Origin: a virus
Taxonomy: Duplodnaviria; Caudoviricetes
Strand: one strand, 5' to 3'
IMG/VR virus record: IMGVR_UViG_3300011337_000669
DNA length: 64,000 nucleotides
Of the stretch, positions 6,842-35,007 are shown one piece after another. The notes below the pieces were generated by a model, which saw only the letters and a program-made list of their open reading frames with translations, was not told the DNA's origin and made no database searches. Positions within the stretch are counted from its first letter, which is position 1, and each line of letters begins with the position of its first letter. The translations under genes and the position numbers were made by a program.

Positions 6842-7276
6842 TTAGTCAATCAAACTGATGGAGACAATATTATCTCCTTGTTGGATTTGTTCGATAAGGT
6901 CAAGACCTTCAATTACCTTTCCAAAACAGGTATGGTTCCCATCCAAGTGTTGGGTGTTTTGTCTAGTATGACAAATGAAAAACTGAGAACCTCCAGTATT
7001 TCTCCCTGAGTGAGCCATAGAAAGGACTCCTCTGTCGTGGAATTGTTTTGGCGCGGTTACTTCACAAGGAATATTATATCCTGGTCCACCATCCCCACGT
7101 TTATTTGGACAACCTCCTTGGGCGACAAATCCTGGAATAACTCTATGGAAGTTCAATCCATTGTAGAAACCATCTGATGCCAATTTCTTGAAGTTATCAA
7201 CCGTAATTGGGGTTTCGTTATCATAAAGTTCGACAATCATGTCCCCTTTATCTGTTGAAATTTTTGCTTTGCTCAT
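6842..7276 (-). CDS. ppiA: Cyclophilin-type peptidyl-prolyl isomerase
   Basis: FYNGLNFHRVIPGFVAQGG, GVLSMAH, GGSQFFI, HLDGNHTCFGKV motifs. Confidence 0.95.
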   Translation of the reverse strand: MSKAKISTDKGDMIVELYDNETPITVDNFKKLASDGFYNGLNFHRVIPGFVAQGGCPNKRGDGGPGYNIPCEVTAPKQFHDRGVLSMAHSGRNTGGSQFFICHTRQNTQHLDGNHTCFGKVIEGLDLIEQIQQGDNIVSISLID

Positions 7277-7353
7277 CTTATTCAATTTTCAAAAAGTATA
7301 ATAAAAAAATATGAAATAAAAAACCCCTCCTAATTAAAGATGGGGTTGTATAA

Positions 7354-7683
7354 TTATTCTTGACAAGTTAACACATAAGTTTCCATCAAATCATCACCAT
7401 ACCAGTCACGGCACATAATAAAAATTCTGTCAATAAATTCTTCATAGCTACTTTCGGTAAAATACTCTTCGTTAACAGCAAAAAAATGTTCAATCGCCAT
7501 AGCAATAATGCTATCAGAATATTCGTATTCATCAACAAAGTCTCCACAAAGATCCGGAAATTCCTCCTGTGTTTCACGAATATATTTCTCGAAGGATTTC
7601 TTATTCACCCTTCGTTTCAATCTATTCATTAAGGAGGACTCGGACAATAATTCATATTGTGATTCTGTTATAATATATTTCAT
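7354..7683 (-). CDS. MKYIITESQ-leader protein, paralog of an internal module of the 584-3073 protein
   Basis: Shared L(K/R)RR.N......YI, C..F..E.EY.D..I and MC..W motifs. Confidence 0.75.
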   Translation of the reverse strand: MKYIITESQYELLSESSLMNRLKRRVNKKSFEKYIRETQEEFPDLCGDFVDEYEYSDSIIAMAIEHFFAVNEEYFTESSYEEFIDRIFIMCRDWYGDDLMETYVLTCQE

Positions 7684-7684
7684 A

Positions 7685-8020
7685 TCAATAATCAGTTAAA
7701 ATAACGGAACCATCAGGAGAATACGCTTCAATCCAAAATTGATTGTTATATCGAGGAATTCCCAAATAATATAAAAAATCTATTCCTATATATTGAGATA
7801 TAAGATAATAAGGGTCGAATTCTTTCTCATACATATTTTTTTCAGTAATCGAATCATCATTCAGGTATACGGCAACTTTGTAGTTATCAAGCTTTCTGCG
7901 ACCTTTTCGACCCTCACCGACGTAAGTAATCTCAACACGATCCACCATAGGATAAACATTCTTTAACAAAGAAGAATTCGCAATCTTATTCAACGCCTTT
8001 AATTCTTGATCACTTAACAT
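7685..8020 (-). CDS. Hypothetical protein
   Basis: ORF; TATTTAT at 8025-8031. Confidence 0.65.
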   Translation of the reverse strand: MLSDQELKALNKIANSSLLKNVYPMVDRVEITYVGEGRKGRRKLDNYKVAVYLNDDSITEKNMYEKEFDPYYLISQYIGIDFLYYLGIPRYNNQFWIEAYSPDGSVILTDY

Positions 8021-8039
8021 ATCAATAAATATCTATTAT

Positions 8040-8092
8040 CCAAAAAAGGGGTTGGGGATTAGAACGACCGAAGGGAGAAATCGAATCCGAAT
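8040..8092. repeat. Dispersed intergenic repeat, copy A
   Basis: CCAAAAAAGGGGTTGGGGATTAGAACGACCGAAGGGAGAA. Confidence 0.9.
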
Positions 8093-8143
8093 ATATTTTA
8101 CATACACACAATAATGTACTACATTTGTTCCAAACAAAGAAAA

Positions 8144-8839
8144 ATGAAATACAGAAAGAAACCAGTAATCATTGACGCAGTTCAATGGACAGGAAAGAAT
8201 CGTAGAGAAATGTTTGACTTCCTAACCCAAGATACATTCAAGAATGAAACAATGGAAATAAGTGATAAACACTTTTACATTGACCGTCATAATGACGGTG
8301 GGTTGGTTATTAAAACCCTTGAAGGAGAACATCTTGCAACAATTGGGGATTACATCATCAGAGGTGTTCAAGGTGAATACTACCCTTGTAAAGAAGATAT
8401 CTTCCTTCAGACCTATGAGAAGGTCGAGGATAATCCTATAACCCTATCATTGAAAGATCTTTATGTCCACGGTAATGGTGATAAAAATAGTACTGGGGGG
8501 ACGACAATTAGTGTTCCTACTAAAGTACCTTACCATACAATTTGTAGTTGTAATGGTAGTGGTCTTTGTGGGTGTACTATCGCTAATAATATGGTAGATA
8601 ATCCTAATATTCTTAAGACTACTACTGGTAATATTACTACCGGTGTATTAAACACTGCAACATCATCATCCACATATGGATATCCAAGAACTGAACCTGA
8701 ACCAAATGGAGTCAAATGTCCAAAATGTGGTGAAGAATTAATGGACACTTACCCAAACATGATATTAACCTCCGATCCACCACAAAAAAATGTTCACTGT
8801 CCAAAGTGTGACCATAAAGGATACAGATTTATTTCATAA
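8144..8839 (+). CDS. Phage protein (MKYRKKPVIIDAVQW family) with C-terminal Cys/Zn-ribbon extension
   Basis: GDYII.GV.GE.YPCK motif; CPKC...CPKC at C-terminus; TACATTTG at 8120-8127. Confidence 0.7.
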   Translation: MKYRKKPVIIDAVQWTGKNRREMFDFLTQDTFKNETMEISDKHFYIDRHNDGGLVIKTLEGEHLATIGDYIIRGVQGEYYPCKEDIFLQTYEKVEDNPITLSLKDLYVHGNGDKNSTGGTTISVPTKVPYHTICSCNGSGLCGCTIANNMVDNPNILKTTTGNITTGVLNTATSSSTYGYPRTEPEPNGVKCPKCGEELMDTYPNMILTSDPPQKNVHCPKCDHKGYRFIS

Positions 8840-8840
8840 T

Positions 8841-8869
8841 AAAAAACCCCACCTTTAAGGGGTGGGGTT
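8841..8869. terminator. Bidirectional terminator between convergent genes
   Basis: AACCCCACC-TTTAAGG-GGTGGGGTT. Confidence 0.8.
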
Positions 8870-17822: not shown

Positions 17823-18134
17823 ATGAAGTATATCATATCTGAACAAAGATTAGGAAGAATAATAAACAGGTACTTAGATGACTTGGGGTTTACAGAAGGA
17901 AATGATGATGCCGATGGGTTTGATATAATGCGCGGTGATAATCAAGTGATGGCTTTCCGTAATGAAGAAGAGAGATTATATATTAGTACTGATTTAATTA
18001 GAGATGTAAGAGACCTTTTTGGATTACCCCAAAAAGAAAGTATGAACTATATCAGGAATTGGTTTCAGGATGAATATAATACACGAGCAAGGACAATGTG
18101 GTTGTTATTTCCTGACGAACCATTCACCTATTAA
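17823..18134 (+). CDS. MKYIISE-leader family protein
   Basis: Leader; TATTTAT upstream. Confidence 0.75.
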   Translation: MKYIISEQRLGRIINRYLDDLGFTEGNDDADGFDIMRGDNQVMAFRNEEERLYISTDLIRDVRDLFGLPQKESMNYIRNWFQDEYNTRARTMWLLFPDEPFTY

Positions 18135-18139
18135 TCTGT

Positions 18140-18181
18140 CATATGCCGGGGTCGATTATCCCCCAACCCCCTTTTTTATTT
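18140..18181 (+). repeat. Upstream element, copy F
   Basis: CATATGCCGGGGTCGATTATCCCCCAACCCCCTTTTTTATTT. Confidence 0.75.
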
Positions 18182-18197
18182 CCTTATATTTATCTAT

Positions 18198-18461
18198 ATG
18201 AAATATATTATCTCCGAAAGCCGACTCGAAGGTATCATGACCGAATACTTGGATTATGATGATAGTTTGGTAATCGCGGATCCGATTTATGATGATAACG
18301 ATCCACATTGGACTGAATATATGTTCTACAACTATGACGATGAAGACTTGTGGGTCAATAATCAATTTATTGATGAATTCAGCTATTTGTTTCATAAAGA
18401 GTATGACGAATCTCTCTCATTTATAAAAGACTGGTTCAAAAAAGAATTCAATCTAAAATGA
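18198..18461 (+). CDS. MKYIISE-leader family protein
   Basis: MKYIISESRLEGIMTEYLD. Confidence 0.78.
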   Translation: MKYIISESRLEGIMTEYLDYDDSLVIADPIYDDNDPHWTEYMFYNYDDEDLWVNNQFIDEFSYLFHKEYDESLSFIKDWFKKEFNLK

Positions 18462-18742
18462 AATACATTATATCTGAAAGCCGACTCGAAAAAATCATGA
18501 CTGAATACTTGGATTCTTATTTTCTAAGTAAGGATATTATTGATAACCAAGCAGGTATTGCTGTGTATGATGATGAGGAGGAATATTTACAGTATTTCCC
18601 AAGAAAAAAAGAGTTATTCATATTGAACGAATTCTTGGATGAGTTCGAATCGGTGTTTAACCTTAGTCGAAACGAATCACTTAGATTCATCACCAAGTGG
18701 TTCGAGAATGAATTTCACGTTAAAGTATACCAATCAGGGTAA
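18458..18742 (+). CDS. MKYIISE-leader family protein (tandem paralog)
   Basis: MKYIISESRLEKIMTEYLD; ATGA overlap with previous gene. Confidence 0.78.
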   Translation: MKYIISESRLEKIMTEYLDSYFLSKDIIDNQAGIAVYDDEEEYLQYFPRKKELFILNEFLDEFESVFNLSRNESLRFITKWFENEFHVKVYQSG

Positions 18743-18749
18743 TTGGTTT

Positions 18750-19679
18750 CTACCCAACATATTTTTTAGCACCACGTGTATATAACGTCACAAACTTCTC
18801 TAACAATTCCTTGTCACTATTTATTAAATTACGAAGTCCGTCTTCTAATTCATTCATCTGTGGAACATGGGTATCAGCATAATCCATAGGTATTACACTT
18901 ACAATCCCCGAGTATATCGCTCTATCTAAGTATGTTTGAAAGTCAGGCATGAATGATGGCATGTACCAATCTGCAGCTAGAATAACTGCATCGATAAGTT
19001 CGGGCATTCTTCTTTTGAGATATGGATTTACTGATTCATCTATCTTTAGTTTGTTTCTCTTTTCGTAGATGGACTTCATCTTCTTTAACAATGTTTCATT
19101 ACTAAGTATGAGTTTTTTCATCATGTCTTCCAAATACTCCAACTTTGTGGTATCAGAATCAAAATAATCTTCAGGTAGTTCAGTTACAATTCCCGAATAT
19201 ATCGATTGTTCCAAAAATGTATCAAAAGTCATGGTGTGCTTGTTGGGATTATAGTATGACGCCGATTCAAAAACCGAATCAATCAATTCAGGTAATCTCC
19301 TTCTAATAGATATTGGAGAATCCCCTTCATTCATTATTTCTAAATCGAGTTTACTAATGAAGATTTGTTTTAGTGTCTGAAGTAATTCCTTATCATTGTT
19401 GATTGTTTTTAATAAGACTTTTTCAATTTCACCTAACTCTTCGCTGGTCAAATCATAATCTTCAATAACATTTCTTATTGAATAAAATATTGTCCTATCT
19501 AAGAAATTCTTGAAATAATTCTCATCGAATTCTCTGTCACTTCTAACAAATATTTCGTTAGCGGTATCAACAACTGCATTAAGAAACTCAGGAAGTCTCC
19601 TTCTTAAATAAGGATTAAGAAAACCTTCATTAATCCCCATGACCTCCTTGATTCTATCTATGTCTTCTTGTAAATTCAT
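18750..19679 (-). CDS. MNLQEDI.RIKEVMG-leader protein with 3 tandem domain copies
   Basis: RRR(L/M)PE.. motif three times; start moved to MNLQED. Confidence 0.8.
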   Translation of the reverse strand: MNLQEDIDRIKEVMGINEGFLNPYLRRRLPEFLNAVVDTANEIFVRSDREFDENYFKNFLDRTIFYSIRNVIEDYDLTSEELGEIEKVLLKTINNDKELLQTLKQIFISKLDLEIMNEGDSPISIRRRLPELIDSVFESASYYNPNKHTMTFDTFLEQSIYSGIVTELPEDYFDSDTTKLEYLEDMMKKLILSNETLLKKMKSIYEKRNKLKIDESVNPYLKRRMPELIDAVILAADWYMPSFMPDFQTYLDRAIYSGIVSVIPMDYADTHVPQMNELEDGLRNLINSDKELLEKFVTLYTRGAKKYVG

Positions 19680-19683
19680 TTGG

Positions 19684-20325
19684 TTAAATGTTGGAGATAT
19701 AGTGATCGTAAATCTCATCGTATATTGAATGATTCTTTACTAACTCCATTATCTTTGGCTCTAGCACTTCACTTATTTTTAACTGTTCTTCGTGTTCCCC
19801 TCCTATTTCATCGGCAACAAAATCTCTTGTTGCTGAGAATATAACCCTTTCTAAAAAATCATCGAAGTTGTTGAATCTACGTGGTGATAACCAGTCATAT
19901 GAAGCTTCGATATAATCAAGTAAAGCATCCATTCTTCTTTTAACAAGAAGTAATTCTTTAGATTCATTTATGTCTTCAGATTCATCTCTTGTTGGATACT
20001 TTTTCGAATCGTAATGTTCTTTGATTTTTCTGAATAACCTTTTATCGTTACGTAATGATACAAAGGCAAATGGGAGTAACTCCTCTATTTCATCTCTTTT
20101 CACAAGAATATCATTAAATTCGAAGAAACCATCTATTGAATGTCTCAATACTAACTTAAGATAGTCTTCAAAACTATCTATGTCTTCTATGAATTCATCC
20201 ATCCACTCGAAAGAAGTAAGGAGAACATCAAGAAATTCATCTTGTCTTCTCTTAAAAAACATATCACGGCTTTCGTTAATCCCCATGACTTCCTTAATCC
20301 TATTTATGTCTTCACGCAAATTCAT
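19684..20325 (-). CDS. MNLREDINRIKEVMG-leader protein with 2 tandem domain copies
   Basis: KRR.D motif twice; TATTTAT upstream. Confidence 0.8.
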   Translation of the reverse strand: MNLREDINRIKEVMGINESRDMFFKRRQDEFLDVLLTSFEWMDEFIEDIDSFEDYLKLVLRHSIDGFFEFNDILVKRDEIEELLPFAFVSLRNDKRLFRKIKEHYDSKKYPTRDESEDINESKELLLVKRRMDALLDYIEASYDWLSPRRFNNFDDFLERVIFSATRDFVADEIGGEHEEQLKISEVLEPKIMELVKNHSIYDEIYDHYISNI

Positions 20326-20346
20326 ATAGATAAATATAAAGAAAAT

Positions 20347-20376
20347 GAAAAACCCCCACCTTTTGGGTGAGGGTTT
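20347..20376 (-). terminator. Intrinsic terminator
   Basis: AAACCCCCACC-TTTTG-GGTGAGGGTTT. Confidence 0.75.
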
Positions 20377-20381
20377 CATTA

Positions 20382-21248
20382 TTATAATTGACTTTCTGCC
20401 GTGACTTTGACGTTGGATAACATCCATCCCGCGTCACATAGTTGGTCACTGTAACAATTTCCCGTGAACCACGGAGTTGATGACGGTCCTTTAGGTGAGT
20501 ATCCTTCCCAATATGAAGGTGTTATCCACCATCCTTTTTCCATACTAGATTTTAATGTGGACATATCTATTGTTGTACCATCTGCTCCACCATCTGCCAA
20601 TACATCATATATTACAGCACTATTTCCGTTTTGTGAAACAGATATTGTCATATTAGTATAATCAGAATTAAACACTATGGTCATGTCAAATGGTTTAGTG
20701 ATATCTAATACATCTACTAAATTATGTGTACCTTTGGATGGGTTATCACTCATATTTGATGGAGTATAACAATCATCATTCAACGCCCCGCTTGTATACG
20801 AATACTCAAATCTTTGTTGATTATTTAAATGAATTGTTTGTTGGAATATTCTATTTCCGTTTGTTTCCATAAAATCAATCTCATTACAATATGGAGAACC
20901 TGCATTTCCTGCATCACAATAGTTAGTTCCTTTAGGTTGAACTGAATTGTTAACCATGTAAAAAGAAGCGTTTAACCAATTGTTCTTTTGTACGCTGTTT
21001 GGTGCCAATCCTGACAAATCAATTGTTGCAGTAATTTTGGATATGTTCTTATATCCATGAGTTGACACAACCCGACCTGGATTAAATGTAACACTTGAAT
21101 CTGTAATAACAGGATCGAGTGTTGGATTACACCAATCACTAACCCAATCTTCTTCAAATGTAACATCATACGTTGTATTCGTAACAGTTTTTGGTTGACA
21201 TCCGAATACCAATAATACCATTAAACCAAGGATAAATAATTTTTTCAT
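20382..21248 (-). CDS. Lipoprotein glycoside hydrolase, GH7-like (clan B jelly-roll)
   Basis: Lipobox LVFGC; WLNASFYMV, GTNYCDA, CNEIDFMETN, LDITKPFDMTIVF motifs. Confidence 0.7.
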   Translation of the reverse strand: MKKLFILGLMVLLVFGCQPKTVTNTTYDVTFEEDWVSDWCNPTLDPVITDSSVTFNPGRVVSTHGYKNISKITATIDLSGLAPNSVQKNNWLNASFYMVNNSVQPKGTNYCDAGNAGSPYCNEIDFMETNGNRIFQQTIHLNNQQRFEYSYTSGALNDDCYTPSNMSDNPSKGTHNLVDVLDITKPFDMTIVFNSDYTNMTISVSQNGNSAVIYDVLADGGADGTTIDMSTLKSSMEKGWWITPSYWEGYSPKGPSSTPWFTGNCYSDQLCDAGWMLSNVKVTAESQL

Positions 21249-21260
21249 AGTTGTGTTTTA

Positions 21261-21599
21261 TCAGAAAACTCTTAAGAAATGTCCTGCGAGTGCTAACAAT
21301 CCAACAATGATTGGAACGTAGGTTTTTGATCCACCCATAAGTGATAAGTGCATTACGACCGCAGCACTCATGAATGATGCGATTAAAATTGCTCCGAACA
21401 ATGATGTAGTCGGAATCAAAAGTAATACAACTCCTAATAATTCACCTAATCCTGTAACAACTCTATACTTCTCTAACTTCATGAATGCGAAGTTCCCCAC
21501 CATTTCTTGTGTTCCAACAAGTTTATCGATTGCACCTTTTCCTAAAAAGAGTGCTGTGATTACGGATAGTACCCATCCGATAATTGATAAAATTTCCAT
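21261..21599 (-). CDS. DoxX-like membrane protein
   Basis: About 4 hydrophobic segments; GELLGVVLLLIP, SAAVVMHL pattern. Confidence 0.75.
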   Translation of the reverse strand: MEILSIIGWVLSVITALFLGKGAIDKLVGTQEMVGNFAFMKLEKYRVVTGLGELLGVVLLLIPTTSLFGAILIASFMSAAVVMHLSLMGGSKTYVPIIVGLLALAGHFLRVF

Positions 21600-21633
21600 A
21601 GTTTTGTTTTTTATATTTTTTTGTTAATTTTTC

Positions 21634-21858
21634 TTATTCTTCGACATCTTCCTCCTCATCTATTTCTCCACTACAACGGTATTCAACCTCATCTCTGTAT
21701 GAAGTGACATCTTGCTGGTGTTCCACACCATCGCATTCGTCCCAAGGACAATCTTCAACTATTTGTAACGCTTCTTCTTCTGTTTCAGCCTCAACGTGAA
21801 GGGTCCACGCCTCTTCCACATATCTCTCTGCAATAATGATAAATTTCTTCTTTGCCAT
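21634..21858 (-). CDS. Small acidic protein (paralog pair, copy 2)
   Basis: MAKKKF.IIAER...AWT...CP..ECD. Confidence 0.7.
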   Translation of the reverse strand: MAKKKFIIIAERYVEEAWTLHVEAETEEEALQIVEDCPWDECDGVEHQQDVTSYRDEVEYRCSGEIDEEEDVEE

Positions 21859-21865
21859 AACTTTT

Positions 21866-22120
21866 TTATTTTTTATATTTTTCTTCTAATTTTTTTAATT
21901 CTTCTTCATTCAAATCTTGTTCGTCATCTAATGAATATTCAATGTCATATGAATCAGTATAAACATTTTCATCATCGTGGTGATAGATATCATCGCATTC
22001 TCCATCAGGACAATTTTCAACTAATTCTAATGCGTCATCGTAATTTTCTGCCAAAACACTATATGTCCACGCGTGGACATATGTCCTTTCCGCAATAATT
22101 GTAAACTTTTTCTTTGCCAT
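21866..22120 (-). CDS. Small acidic protein (paralog pair, copy 1)
   Basis: Same motifs as 21634-21858. Confidence 0.7.
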   Translation of the reverse strand: MAKKKFTIIAERTYVHAWTYSVLAENYDDALELVENCPDGECDDIYHHDDENVYTDSYDIEYSLDDEQDLNEEELKKLEEKYKK

Positions 22121-22178
22121 ATTATTATTTTTGTTTAACTGTAAGAATTTATTTCGGTATTGTCAAATAAACACAACC

Positions 22179-22304
22179 CTATTTTCCTCTTAAGAAAAAT
22201 AATACTATTGCTCCGATGATTAGGTATGTCATAAAGTTTGGGATATTGGTCAGCCCCCAAACAATGATGAATCCTACAATTAAAACATTGATTAGTCGTA
22301 ACAT
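22179..22304 (-). CDS. 41-aa hydrophobic membrane peptide
   Basis: Manual translation MLRLINVLIVGFIIVWG...FFLRGK; TATATTTG upstream. Confidence 0.55.
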   Translation of the reverse strand: MLRLINVLIVGFIIVWGLTNIPNFMTYLIIGAIVLFFLRGK

Positions 22305-22386
22305 GAGTTATTTTTTTTTAGGTATGCCCCAAATATAAAAAAAAATATCCGAATAAAAAAACCTCATCGATGGTGAGGTTTATATT

Positions 22387-22926
22387 TTATTCTTCAGGTT
22401 TGTATCTTTTAGCCGCGTATAATAAGTTATCAATCCCTGACTTATCAGGATTTGTAATTGAAATGTATTTTATTACATCAGGGTCATTTAGTTTCTTCAA
22501 AAAACTATTGTTTCTACTTTGAGCATAAGTAACATCAGATCTCTTCTTACCTTTAATCCTAATTATCTCCAATTGGTCAATCATCTTCTTATACAACCAA
22601 TATGGAATCTTAATGTAATTGAACCCCTCCATATCTTCAACATCTCCTAATACCTCCACTTGTGATTTTGGTAAATTAAACTTTTGAACATTGAGATTAT
22701 ACTCTTGAGCGTTGTCCATAAAAATTCTGTTTTCACGAGCCATCTCTTTGATGTTCATGATTTGGATGCTATCACCATCTTCTCCTGTAATCATATAGGC
22801 CCCAACAATTGATTTATCCTCAGGAATATAAGTTGTCTTATTAAAATCATAAGACGGATTGACATCTTGTTCTGAAATCATTCCCATCACTTCTTTGATT
22901 CTATGTATATCCTCTTGTAAGTTCAT
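22387..22926 (-). CDS. MNLQEDIHRIKEVMG-leader protein
   Basis: Leader; start moved. Confidence 0.75.
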   Translation of the reverse strand: MNLQEDIHRIKEVMGMISEQDVNPSYDFNKTTYIPEDKSIVGAYMITGEDGDSIQIMNIKEMARENRIFMDNAQEYNLNVQKFNLPKSQVEVLGDVEDMEGFNYIKIPYWLYKKMIDQLEIIRIKGKKRSDVTYAQSRNNSFLKKLNDPDVIKYISITNPDKSGIDNLLYAAKRYKPEE

Positions 22927-22927
22927 C

Positions 22928-23374
22928 TTATTTCTTTTTCTTGATACAGTTCGGATATTTTTTACCAAACATTGTCTTCATACCTTTTTGAGTATAACCT
23001 TTCCAACATTTCTCAGTCAACTCACCTTCCATTTGCTCTTGCTTTTGTGTGTCTTTACAACCCCTAACGTACTTTCTTTTCAGATTTGGCTGTATATCAA
23101 AATTACTATCCAATAACATAAAAATGTCATTCATAATATCCTCTTGTACTGAAGTCCCACCAAAAGCATTCGCCATTACTTGAAACGGATCGATATCGAA
23201 AGTTACGGTAACTAAATAACTTTTGTATTCACCAGCCTCTATTACATCGATATCAACATCACATATTTCTTTTTCGTACTGACGAACAATAATCCCATCA
23301 ATCAGTTTTTTAATCAATGGCACTAAATTTTTTCGAGTTTCTTCGTGTAATATTTTTCTGATTAGGTCTCTCAT
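22928..23374 (-). CDS. MRDLIRKILHEE-leader protein with C-terminal KCWKGY...PNC mini-domain
   Basis: Leader; TATTTAT upstream. Confidence 0.7.
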   Translation of the reverse strand: MRDLIRKILHEETRKNLVPLIKKLIDGIIVRQYEKEICDVDIDVIEAGEYKSYLVTVTFDIDPFQVMANAFGGTSVQEDIMNDIFMLLDSNFDIQPNLKRKYVRGCKDTQKQEQMEGELTEKCWKGYTQKGMKTMFGKKYPNCIKKKK

Positions 23375-33480: not shown

Positions 33481-35007
33481 TCAAGAACCCCTTGTTTTTT
33501 TTGATTCCATATGAGATGTAACATCATCCAATATATTGTTTCTCTTGGCGTATGTATAAGCTCCCATACTACCTAATCTAAAAGCCTCTCTGTTTTGATA
33601 TTTAAGTGCCTCTTGTTTAACCGATTCGTCATCCCAAACGTTTCTTCTTTTCATATGTTTAGTAACATCATTTATCCAACCGTATTTTATTGCCGCATCA
33701 TAGGCAGTCTTATTGTTTTTTCTAAAGTCGACATAATTATCATATTTTTTTGCAATATCATTAACCAAATTTTTAGTCCAAACAAATTGTGACTCCATAT
33801 GTTTTGTAACTTCATCTAACCAATTATTTTTTACCGCAGAATTATAGGCACCAGGCGAATTTTGTTGGAATTCCCTTCTCATTTTATATTTTTCAGCTTC
33901 TTTTTTAACATTATCAAAATCCATCCAAGGAAGTTCTTTCCTTTTCAAATTTTCAATCAAGTCGAACCACCTGTTTTTTAATATTGCGTTGTATGCTGAT
34001 TCTTCATTTTTCCTAAAGTTTGCTAAAGTGTCATAGTTGATAATTATTTTTTGTAAAATCTCTCTAGTATATTTTTTAAATTTAACATCTTTTTCCAAAT
34101 CTTTAACTACATCCTCATACCACCCATTGTTTACTGCCGCTTCCCAAGCATTTTTTTCATTATTCCTAAAATCTTTCAGTTTAGTATATTTTTTGGCAAT
34201 ATTCATGACTTTTTCTTTAGACCATTTTTGTAAATTACCACCTAAACCACCTGTTTTTACTTTATTCAATGGTGTCCAACCATTATTAATATACTGATTT
34301 AATATCTCATTTTCTTTTTGTACAGATTCCTCATTAGTAATAAATTCTGTAATTTTTTTCAAAACCGGTGTCAATCCAGTTTTTAATGTGTGCTGATACA
34401 CAGAACTTTTTACATCCCTTAAATGGCTGTACTCCCTTTTCTTTTGATTATATGTTAGTCCAACATAAAAATAGTTATCAGGAAATTCATACACATAAAT
34501 CATTCTGTTATATCTATTCCCCAACAATTCCATATGTTGTGTAACATCATCCATGATGCCCATTCGTAAAGCGGCATTATACGCATTTTGGTCATTTTTT
34601 TCAAATTCACTTCGATATTTATATTTTAATGCAATATCATGTATTTTTTTTTTATCCCATCGCGTATTTCGTTTCATATGCGAAATTATGTCATCAATAA
34701 ACCCATTTCTTTTAGCGAATAAAAAAGCTCCATTTTCATTATTTCTGAAATCTATAAATCTATCATAATTTTGTGCAATTCGAAATATATCATCATATGT
34801 CCAATTATTATTTCGTTTTATTACCATATGGGTTGTGACATCATCTATCCACCCGTTACGTCTAGCGGCTTCATACGCGTTTGAGGATTTTTTTTGAAAT
34901 TCTCCTCTATTCCCATATTTTTCCGCTTCTTTTTGAACCAATTCTTTAGTCCACTTGACTCTTTCAGTAATAATTTTTTTTATTTCGGCAAGAATTATTT
35001 GTTTCAT
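33481..35007 (-). CDS. GIY-YIG-like nuclease flanked by 8 tandem ~47-aa repeats
   Basis: IYVYEFPDNYFYVGLT...RE..H core; W......A.KY....F......AY..A....W.D...HM repeats (3 before, 5 after). Confidence 0.8.
   Translation of the reverse strand: MKQIILAEIKKIITERVKWTKELVQKEAEKYGNRGEFQKKSSNAYEAARRNGWIDDVTTHMVIKRNNNWTYDDIFRIAQNYDRFIDFRNNENGAFLFAKRNGFIDDIISHMKRNTRWDKKKIHDIALKYKYRSEFEKNDQNAYNAALRMGIMDDVTQHMELLGNRYNRMIYVYEFPDNYFYVGLTYNQKKREYSHLRDVKSSVYQHTLKTGLTPVLKKITEFITNEESVQKENEILNQYINNGWTPLNKVKTGGLGGNLQKWSKEKVMNIAKKYTKLKDFRNNEKNAWEAAVNNGWYEDVVKDLEKDVKFKKYTREILQKIIINYDTLANFRKNEESAYNAILKNRWFDLIENLKRKELPWMDFDNVKKEAEKYKMRREFQQNSPGAYNSAVKNNWLDEVTKHMESQFVWTKNLVNDIAKKYDNYVDFRKNNKTAYDAAIKYGWINDVTKHMKRRNVWDDESVKQEALKYQNREAFRLGSMGAYTYAKRNNILDDVTSHMESKKTRGS

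Follow-up and report, generated by a model that had tools for sequence, protein, structure and literature searches.

A GH7-like glycoside hydrolase lipoprotein predicted in an uncultured tailed phage, and its family as a putative sister clade of GH7

The stretch of DNA analyzed here, 64,000 nucleotides (nt) of the IMG/VR tailed-virus record IMGVR_UViG_3300011337_000669 (Duplodnaviria; Caudoviricetes) and hereafter called the window, carries on its minus strand a gene of 288 codons (20382..21248), which we confirmed from the list of open reading frames (ORFs) and its translation, and which very probably encodes a GH7-like glycoside hydrolase lipoprotein of 288 amino acids (aa). A first-pass annotation had read this product as a compact, GH7-like lipoprotein encoded by a phage, and every protein string that it quoted was found in the translation in the order given, namely, LVFGC (aa 13-17), IDLSGL...WLNASFYMV (aa 76-99), GTNYCDA (aa 107-113), CNEIDFMETN (aa 121-130), LDITKPFDMTIVF (aa 181-193), and KGWWITPSYW (aa 238-247). 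A signal peptide and lipobox (21198..21248, minus strand), comprising MKK, a hydrophobic core, and VFG-C17, were recognized by reading the sequence, with Cys17 as the predicted lipidation site; the mature domain covers about aa 18-288. The gene is real, because more than 150 close homologues of its product occur in metagenomes (E <= 0.01), and because its dN/dS is 0.08-0.18 against five orthologues of 67-92 % amino-acid identity; it is under purifying selection.

The GH7-type motifs of this protein fall into three groups, which we followed through the family alignments A1 (28 members), A2, and A3 and into 8POF, the structure of RsSymEG1, a 321-aa "smaller" GH7 endoglucanase from a termite-gut protist. 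Among these, Tyr110, Cys111, and Asp112 (20913..20921, minus strand) make up a "YCD" motif, invariant in A1 and A3 and aligned both to YCDA of 8POF and to the GH7 profile; the segment C121-N-E123-I-D125-F-M-E128 (20865..20888, minus strand), a catalytic E-x-D-x-x-E with a preceding Cys, aligns to the GH7 catalytic motif; and His140 (20829..20831, minus strand), a conserved histidine 12 residues past the acid/base Glu, is invariant in A1, A2, and A3. Tyr110, Cys111, and Asp112, as well as Cys121, two residues ahead of the nucleophile, are thus all present and aligned to their GH7 counterparts, and these four residues, together with Glu123, Asp125, Glu128, and His140, are invariant across the family alignments. 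Indeed, the complete C-x-E-x-D-x-x-E...H signature occurs in 196 of the 206 unique family members, the rest being mostly fragments, which agrees with the earlier claim that the catalytic E-x-D-x-x-E is intact. By match to GH7, Glu123 is the predicted nucleophile, Asp125 the helper, and Glu128 the acid/base. In T. reesei Cel7A, Glu212, Asp214, Glu217, and His228 are the nucleophile, the helper Asp, the acid/base, and the assisting His of a retaining mechanism, respectively, His228 being the counterpart of His140, and Cys172-Cys210 is the Cel7A disulfide pair tied to YCD and to the pre-nucleophile Cys. Six Cys residues beyond Cys17 are conserved in A1, which is compatible with an oxidizing compartment.

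Scans of the protein against Pfam, NCBIfam, and PHROGs returned nothing meaningful, and neither the Pfam GH7 model (PF00840) nor the Pfam GH16 model (PF00722) matched it even at E <= 10; PF00840 reached just one of 22 family and intermediate sequences, at 8e-5. In a phmmer search of all Protein Data Bank (PDB) sequences, the sole significant match was 8POF, aligned over aa 101-193 (E 7e-4) through GT.YCDA...C-N-E-x-D-x-x-E-x-N. The family profile built from A1, searched against 1.84 billion representative proteins, retrieved 275 proteins at E <= 0.001, and a Pfam scan of 60 distant profile matches (E 1e-25 to 1e-6) assigned 54 of them to Glyco_hydro_7 and none to GH16. Moreover, hhalign aligned the family with a GH7 alignment at a probability of 99.9 % (E 1.6e-32; 209 columns; aa 61-286), pairing the motifs DLS, NA.Y.V, YCDA, C.E.D..E, Q.T.H, ID..KPF, SQ.G, S.W, and SN..V, whereas the probability against GH16, represented by nine Pfam-verified GH16 domains from gammaproteobacterial genomes, was 3.3 %, and that of the control comparison of GH7 with GH16 was 29 %. 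The resemblance to GH7 is homology, far above chance level, and the pairing of motifs with GH7 that the first-pass annotation had proposed was recovered by both phmmer (8POF) and hhalign.

An AlphaFold2 model computed from the family alignment (predicted local distance difference test, pLDDT, 91.2; predicted template-modeling score, pTM, 0.88) was compared with known structures by VIA-align. In an exhaustive comparison with 48,161 PDB representatives, 8POF ranked first (Z 18.1; 228 residues; root-mean-square deviation 3.2 A), followed by two other GH7 enzymes (Z 16.9 and 16.5), whereas the best GH16 structure, VvEG16, reached Z 15.8 over 180 residues and the other GH16 entries did not exceed 13.6. 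When the comparison was run over the 1000 best chains of Foldseek, the top 46 were all GH7 (Z 16.5-18.1; ~230 aligned residues), and the first GH16 entry appeared at Z 16.1 with ~180 aligned residues; legume-lectin and LamG folds lay further down the list, at Z 11-12. Among AlphaFold DB clusters, the best Foldseek matches were GH7-like proteins from Symbiodinium, from Emiliania huxleyi, and from transcriptomes of marine protists, while the viral structures of BFVD yielded only weak GH16- or LamG-type jelly rolls (best E 1e-6). The phage protein is, as modeled, a GH7-type fold of the clan GH-B beta-jelly-roll. The structural check that had been called for, AlphaFold followed by a fold search, therefore sets 46 GH7 entries above the best GH16, and, together with the hhalign contrast and the lack of GH16 among the 60 distant relatives, it favors a GH7-like over a GH16 assignment. 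The result named in advance as refuting the first-pass reading, an ordinary GH16 as the closest HMM or structural match, was not obtained.

The position of the family relative to canonical GH7 was examined in an unrooted IQ-TREE phylogeny of 115 sequences, computed by a quick method. All phage and bacterial members lie beyond a branch of about 0.9 in length with 100 % support in the Shimodaira-Hasegawa-like approximate likelihood-ratio test (SH-aLRT), and a few intermediates, protist sequences included, lie on the same side. Of the 60 distant profile matches, of which 54 are Pfam GH7-positive, 58 fall across this branch and two on the family side. The closest sequences beyond the core family, which are on the phage side of the tree, include a transcript of the dinoflagellate Biecheleria cincta and proteins from Tara eukaryotic metatranscriptomes. 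Further, the mature protein has ~271 residues, ~50 fewer than the smallest GH7 with a solved structure. Because PF00840 is silent, because the family forms a separate sister clade, and because of this shorter length, the protein is not a canonical GH7, and "GH7-like sister clade in clan GH-B" appears to be the apt label on sequence grounds. The earlier designation "compact GH7-like" thus stands as regards GH7 homology and small size, but it needs to be qualified as regards membership, as PF00840 does not see the protein and the clade lies outside the GH7 radiation.

The family is widespread in uncultured aquatic tailed phages, both huge and T4-like, and rare in bacteria. Motif-seeded scans found it on 75 IMG/VR viral contigs (29-52 % GC) and at five loci among 185,579 prokaryotic species (one genome each), all five in metagenome-assembled genomes (MAGs), four of Halieaceae (Halioglobus, Haliea) and one of a planctomycete. 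The MAG loci are true chromosomal contexts of 50-58 % GC, beside uvrB, purEK, and regulators, and the Halieaceae genes nest among the T4-like phage versions in the unrooted tree. Distant nonviral members, planctomycete-type ones included, bear dockerin or FG-GAP-like N-termini. The phage origin that had been assumed for the gene is corroborated by PHROG matches across the window, by near-identical copies of the gene on IMG/VR contigs, and by the three nearest ESM-Atlas clusters, which are 100 % Viruses/Uroviricota and are followed by a haptophyte GH7 cluster. Carrier contigs of 117-199 kb are 48-66 % complete according to CheckV, and one of four has a phage large terminase. No tblastn match to three divergent family members was found among GenBank phages (50,697 records). 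Two further searches were uninformative, as their controls were silent too: one for the nucleocytoplasmic large DNA virus (NCLDV) capsid PF04451 in four large related contigs and one for PF00840 in four MAG genomes, neither of which gave a match.

Two groups of carriers differ in character. Marine contigs of up to 333 kb (L094-L096; gene 7001-7897) encode a 298-aa sub-family that has a signal peptide without a lipobox and turns up in 199 blocks of the collection; their setting consists of long same-strand arrays of densely packed ORFans, where a ClpB-like ATPase, a ferritin, and a protein of 1998 aa or more are also encoded, and their source is probably another very large marine virus. The contig L070 (IMGVR GVMAG-S-ERX556045-73; gene 7623-8717), which carries a giant-virus-MAG (GVMAG) label and may be either an NCLDV or a misbinned phage, encodes a member with a 127-aa N-terminal extension and without a signal peptide.

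The window itself is phage-like, and its source is a very large freshwater phage. It has a coding density of 90 % and no tRNA in this stretch, and its PHROG-type content comprises HNH and GIY-YIG nucleases, an SbcC-like protein, endonuclease VII, DNA methyltransferases, a sigma factor, and several PHROGs of unknown function; its cultured relatives are distant and mostly jumbo phages. The GH7-like gene is the last of a small minus-strand unit that starts with two acidic paralogous genes (21634..21858 and 21866..22120; 74 and 84 aa; a single cluster, f571), continues with a gene for a DoxX-like small membrane protein (21261..21599; 112 aa; Pfam DoxX_2, E 1.1e-9), whose stop lies 12 nt ahead of the GH7-like start, and ends at a strong intrinsic terminator (20349..20377, minus strand), which has a 12-bp stem with six GC pairs and a T-run, 5 nt past the GH7-like stop codon. 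The terminator scan found seven sites in the region, against 1.6 expected. A tentative promoter zone (22138..22337, minus strand), downstream of another terminator (22381-22359), is suggested by consensus matches, namely, a TAnnTTTG element (22337-22330) and a sigma-70-like TTGACA-17-TACAGT (22166-22138), both on the minus strand; the sigma-70 promoter scan as a whole was at chance level, with 27 found and 28 expected. An unlisted 41-codon ORF for a hydrophobic peptide (22179-22304, minus strand) lies between the TAnnTTTG element and the first acidic gene, and a 247-aa ORF that overlaps the 3' end of the GH7-like gene must start at its internal Met.

Metagenomes of several studies, from riverine, freshwater, and estuary sites, contain the exact stretch. 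In three metatranscriptome libraries (two studies), contigs span 20342-21883, with the GH7-like and DoxX-like genes, and not the flanks, whereas one DNA run spans all; these contigs give a weak hint that the unit is transcribed. Their boundary at 20342 is a strain difference rather than a transcript end, because there is a loose end at this position. Natural populations also contain gene-less forms: joints of 20374 to 21235 and of 20374 to 21268, in one DNA run and one RNA run, replace exactly the GH7-like gene by 12-14 other letters, and in the DNA run the gene-less joint has about half the depth of the gene-bearing form. The GH7-like gene is therefore a dispensable presence/absence cassette in natural (river) populations. 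A further joint (21595 to 22117) marks a DNA variant without the two small acidic genes, and the corner of the window around the GH7-like gene is built of gene-sized indel cassettes.

Several neighboring genes (17823-18742, plus strand; 18750-20325 and 22387-22968, minus strand) belong to paralogous sets that have common short N-terminal leaders (MKYIISESRL... and MNL.EDI.RIKEVMG...) and different bodies; a 322-aa protein of these sets has internal repeats and a borderline match to Pfam Terpene_synth_C (27.9 bits; cut-off, 26.3). Farther away, a 508-aa GIY-YIG-type protein (33481-35007, minus strand; phrog_20046, E 1e-93) is probably a mobile nuclease, since phages of Vibrio, Burkholderia, and Rhizobium carry it in multiple copies.

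In ~35 T4-like contigs, the GH7-like gene lies within an nrdA-nrdB-glutaredoxin cluster, with a PAAR-type spike-tip gene close by. Its position in this cluster varies, the orders (with X for the GH7-like gene) being A-X-B, A-B-X-grx, B-X-A, and B-A-X (e.g., L017:3920-8259, L043:3780-8912, and L073:6954-10494), and since the position differs among contigs, repeated insertion of the gene at an nrd hot spot is suggested. NrdA of the T4-like group with 43 % GC is 54-59 % identical to that of Xanthomonas, Ralstonia, and Stenotrophomonas myophages, and a helicase of the group with 32 % GC has 55 % identity to its counterpart in Flavobacterium phage vB_FspM_immuto. In one T4-like contig, a gene for a Gram-negative porin lies only a few genes away from the GH7-like one (L017:11355-12260; Pfam Porin_4, E 4e-21).

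A second recurrent neighbor is a Cys-rich secreted protein or lipoprotein of ~200-245 aa with an invariant FCGAS...PTGK...EGCAICP region, found together with the GH7-like enzyme at 15 or more viral loci (e.g., L006:9690-10385, L030:6727-7443, and L047:8262-8861). This FCGAS partner is fused C-terminally to the GH7-like enzyme in L053/L054 (533 aa; L053:3070-4668) and in L062 (511 aa; L062:8001-9533), and these fusions are a Rosetta-stone link to a partner function. The partner has no Pfam domain and no meaningful PDB match, and all that the Atlas offered were leads to lipoproteins of Bacteroidota, at scores below 0.9; its AlphaFold2 model (pLDDT 58) was kept out of the fold search. There is no FCGAS gene in the window. 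Other modules are fused to the GH7-like domain in L074 (427 aa) and in L027-L034 (465 aa).

A third neighbor, a sulfatase (PF00884), is encoded immediately upstream of the GH7-like gene in the huge-phage lineage of L027 (L028:5722-7332; also L027, L029, L031, L034, L051, and L064) and, independently, in the Halioglobus MAG L002 (1428-3716). In the latter, the two genes are 16 nt apart, and the sulfatase and GH7-like products are both lipoproteins. The adjoining sulfatase may point to a sulfated glycan as substrate.

With respect to export, the N-terminus (MKK, an LFILGLMVLL core, and VFG-C17) has the n-region, h-region, and lipobox of an SPase II substrate. The lipoprotein signal LVFGC, which had been noticed by eye, satisfies the PROSITE PS51257-type rule, and so do the N-termini of 112 of the 171 N-terminally complete unique family members. 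None of these 112 predicted lipoproteins has Asp at +2, and 94 of them have no Asp or Glu from +2 to +6. Asp at +2 is the proteobacterial Lol-avoidance signal, and an acidic post-Cys motif is the signal for surface export of Bacteroidota lipoproteins; since both are missing throughout the family, the sorting rules favor the periplasmic face of the outer membrane, which is most likely, judging from the sequence, the location of the protein rather than the surface. The display on the surface of the infected host that the first-pass annotation had envisaged is not supported. In the closest sub-clade (70-79 % identity; P0014-P0048; L010-L013 and L015, gene ~8001-8864), a short Lys-rich amphipathic leader of the MKKLFNLIKKLFKG type takes the place of the signal peptide, without a hydrophobic core and often without Cys, and the catalytic residues and the disulfide Cys residues are retained.

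The host of the window phage is probably a member of the Bacteroidota. Of the 88 window genes, 3 have a Shine-Dalgarno-like motif ahead of the start codon, a frequency no different from the 4 % of the shuffled background, as compared with 5-12 % in related low-GC contig groups and 49 % in the T4-like group with 43 % GC. Initiation without a Shine-Dalgarno motif is typical of Bacteroidota, and the window has a modest excess of TAnnTTTG, the -7 element of Bacteroidota (112 vs 88 +/- 8); it is the missing motifs together with this excess that point to a Bacteroidota host.

We propose that the protein would be exported by Sec, lipidated at Cys17, and tethered in the envelope of a Gram-negative, probably Bacteroidota, host, where the six further conserved Cys residues would form disulfides. 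There, its substrate would be a glycan with beta linkages, probably beta-1,4, which it would cut by a retaining double-displacement mechanism, with Glu123 as the nucleophile, Glu128 as the acid/base, and Asp125 and His140 assisting. Endo action in an open cleft is expected, because the protein is without the long loops of cellobiohydrolases. Taken jointly, the molecular identity as a GH7-like sister-clade lipoprotein glycoside hydrolase and this enzymatic mechanism are likely to be correct. As for its role, the gene has the hallmarks of an auxiliary (moron-type) gene: it lies in a phage genome and outside the core modules, it is dispensable, it has its own terminator, and its insertion point in the nrd cluster varies. 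A virus-encoded GH75 chitosanase from soil provides a precedent for carbohydrate-active auxiliary metabolic genes (AMGs) in viruses (PMC9485262). With this precedent, and because the cellular relatives look catabolic and the T4-like placement is among morons and AMGs, we tentatively favor, at somewhat less than even odds, an auxiliary enzyme that would serve the phage by cutting poly- or oligosaccharides that enter the periplasm of the infected cell.

Several observations weigh against this reading. PF00840 is blind to the protein, and a branch of 100 % support separates the family from Pfam-positive GH7, so that function is extrapolated over a large distance; the activity is deduced from sequence, and the fold, the disulfides, the cleft, and the catalytic geometry are model predictions. 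A hydrophobic leader or Cys is lost in about one-fourth of the members, including the 70-79 % relatives of the window protein, which is difficult to reconcile with the envelope as an obligatory location. The periplasmic orientation derives from sorting rules, and the Bacteroidota assignment from the missing Shine-Dalgarno motifs and a modest excess of TAnnTTTG. Moreover, the sulfatase neighborhood is confined to two lineages, and the RNA support consists of contigs of RNA libraries, which may contain DNA and give neither strand nor ends.

The strongest rival to the auxiliary role, possible though in our estimate rather unlikely, is that the enzyme remodels glycans of the host envelope itself, such as capsule or exopolysaccharide, including a cellulose-like exopolysaccharide in transit, periplasmic glucans, or a glycan receptor, and thereby blocks superinfection, keeps progeny off debris, or eases release. 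Such a role would suit a protein that is predicted to be exported and membrane-tethered and an accessory presence/absence gene that lies outside the structural modules, in early-type nucleotide-metabolism clusters of the T4-like contigs, often along with the gene of another secreted protein, to which the enzyme is fused in some loci; lipoproteins by which phages shield the cells that they infect, such as T5 Llp and Cor, are a known theme as well. However, the known exclusion lipoproteins are nonenzymatic, the cellular homologues look catabolic (sulfatase operon, dockerin-like modules), and the enzyme is kept across phages of the Bacteroidota type without Shine-Dalgarno motifs and of the proteobacterial type that uses them, while capsule and O-antigen vary greatly between such hosts.

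A peptidoglycan-directed lysis or entry enzyme, which would cut the murein strand as a beta-1,4 glycan, is improbable. Peptidoglycan is the one beta-1,4 glycan common to all inferred hosts, an outer-membrane lipoprotein is well positioned beside it, and some members are without a signal peptide, as are holin-dependent endolysins. On the other hand, no muramidase is known from clan GH-B; the gene is not in a lysis cassette, its neighbors being the DoxX-like gene, nrd genes, and the sulfatase gene; constitutive Sec export of a murein hydrolase would cause early lysis; and natural phage variants without the gene are unlikely for an essential lysin.

Highly improbable, too, is a noncatalytic jelly-roll lipoprotein, a lectin or receptor-masking protein with relic GH7-like motifs. 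Many ConA-like jelly rolls are lectins, and the structural list does contain legume-lectin and LamG folds, but the nucleophile, the helper Asp, the acid/base, and the His are common with GH7 and invariant down to 23-30 % identity, which is the pattern expected of catalysis and not of binding alone.

An origin of the window in a protist giant virus or in eukaryotic contamination, with the gene taken from a GH7-bearing algal host, is essentially excluded. While the nearest nonfamily relatives are of protists (Biecheleria cincta, Tara metatranscriptomes, and the Symbiodinium and E. huxleyi models) and one carrier contig bears a GVMAG label, most members have a bacterial lipobox, the Atlas taxa are Uroviricota, the carriers include T4-like genes, a phage terminase, a Gram-negative porin, and the helicase that is 55 % identical to that of a Flavobacterium phage, and the window has phage PHROGs and a sigma factor.

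Least credible of all, and again essentially excluded, is an ordinary GH16 of the laminarinase or lichenase type common in Bacteroidota, for although it would have the same clan fold and an E-x-D-x-x-E-type motif, although VvEG16 reaches Z 15.8-16.1, and although an Atlas feature search lists GH16 clusters at 0.84-0.85 (a lead only), there is no PF00722 match, the hhalign probability is far below that for GH7, none of the 60 distant matches is GH16, every GH16 is outranked by 46 GH7 entries with ~50 more aligned residues, and YCD...C-x-E is GH7-type.

We return to the GH7-like sister-clade enzyme and to what it would mean for GH7, which is among the most studied and industrially important cellulase families and has been described as confined to eukaryotes (PMC5766984, PMC7571853). 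In the literature searched, which did not cover the phylogeny accompanying 8POF or CAZy, no paper describing GH7-like proteins of viruses or prokaryotes was found. The dinoflagellate and eukaryotic metatranscriptome sequences on the phage side of the unrooted tree give a basis for a prokaryotic/viral GH7 branch, such that eukaryotic GH7 descended from a compact enzyme of this kind or that phages shuttled the gene between protists and bacteria; we regard this as speculative and, at present, unlikely. Were it true, phages would be a reservoir of and a vehicle for a family central to cellulose breakdown, and the 270-residue protein would be a minimal GH7 scaffold. In any case, the phage sister family broadens clan GH-B and opens the origin of GH7 to direct tests, and its ~270-residue scaffold, predicted to be disulfide-stabilized, would be useful for structure and function work. 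It also enlarges the known gene content of freshwater and marine phages by an abundant, unannotated glycanase that is predicted to be exported. Surveys of viral carbohydrate-active enzymes (CAZymes) and AMGs would miss this glycanase where they depend on Pfam, NCBIfam, PHROGs, or GenBank phages, because the first three are blind to it and the last have no detectable homologue. The lipoprotein form and the recurrent, sometimes fused, secreted partners hint at a small envelope-located phage system.

Among known systems, RsSymEG1 (8POF) is the nearest, being the best match both in sequence (E 7e-4) and in structure (19 % identity), with a common YCDA...C-x-E-x-D-x-x-E and a compact, loop-poor build. 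It differs in being eukaryotic and secreted, in being no lipoprotein, and in its length (321 aa vs about 271 aa in the mature phage protein); moreover, it is a GH7 recognized by Pfam and CAZy, whereas PF00840 does not detect the phage protein, which belongs to a separate clade. The canonical GH7 enzymes (Cel7A and Cel7B of T. reesei, Humicola Cel7B, and Daphnia and Limnoria Cel7) have in common with the phage protein (i) the jelly-roll (Z 16.5-17.6; ~230 residues), (ii) the catalytic Glu-Asp-Glu and His, and (iii) the motifs DLS, NA.Y.V, ID..KPF, SQNG, and S.W; however, they are 370-440 aa long, have tunnel- or cleft-forming loops, and are only 14-20 % identical to it. The GH16 enzymes (VvEG16, bacterial laminarinases, and lichenases) have the clan GH-B superfold and a similar catalytic motif, and their lipoprotein forms are common in Bacteroidota, but they are set apart by the hhalign probability of 3.3 %, by ~180 instead of ~230 equivalent residues, and by the lack of YCD and of the pre-nucleophile Cys.

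Two further comparisons concern the phage setting. With viral CAZyme AMGs such as the GH75 chitosanase (PMC9485262), the gene has in common that a phage-borne glycoside hydrolase lies outside the virion and lysis modules and is a candidate for altering host carbon use; those enzymes are of another fold and family, whereas the GH7-like enzyme is a predicted lipoprotein with recurrent secreted partners and without a cellular family of known function.

T5 Llp, Cor, and the o-spanins are small, nonenzymatic envelope lipoproteins encoded by phages. They resemble the GH7-like protein in export, in a lipid anchor in the envelope of the infected cell, and in being often nonessential morons, whereas the GH7-like protein differs from them in comprising a whole glycosidase domain with conserved catalytic residues.

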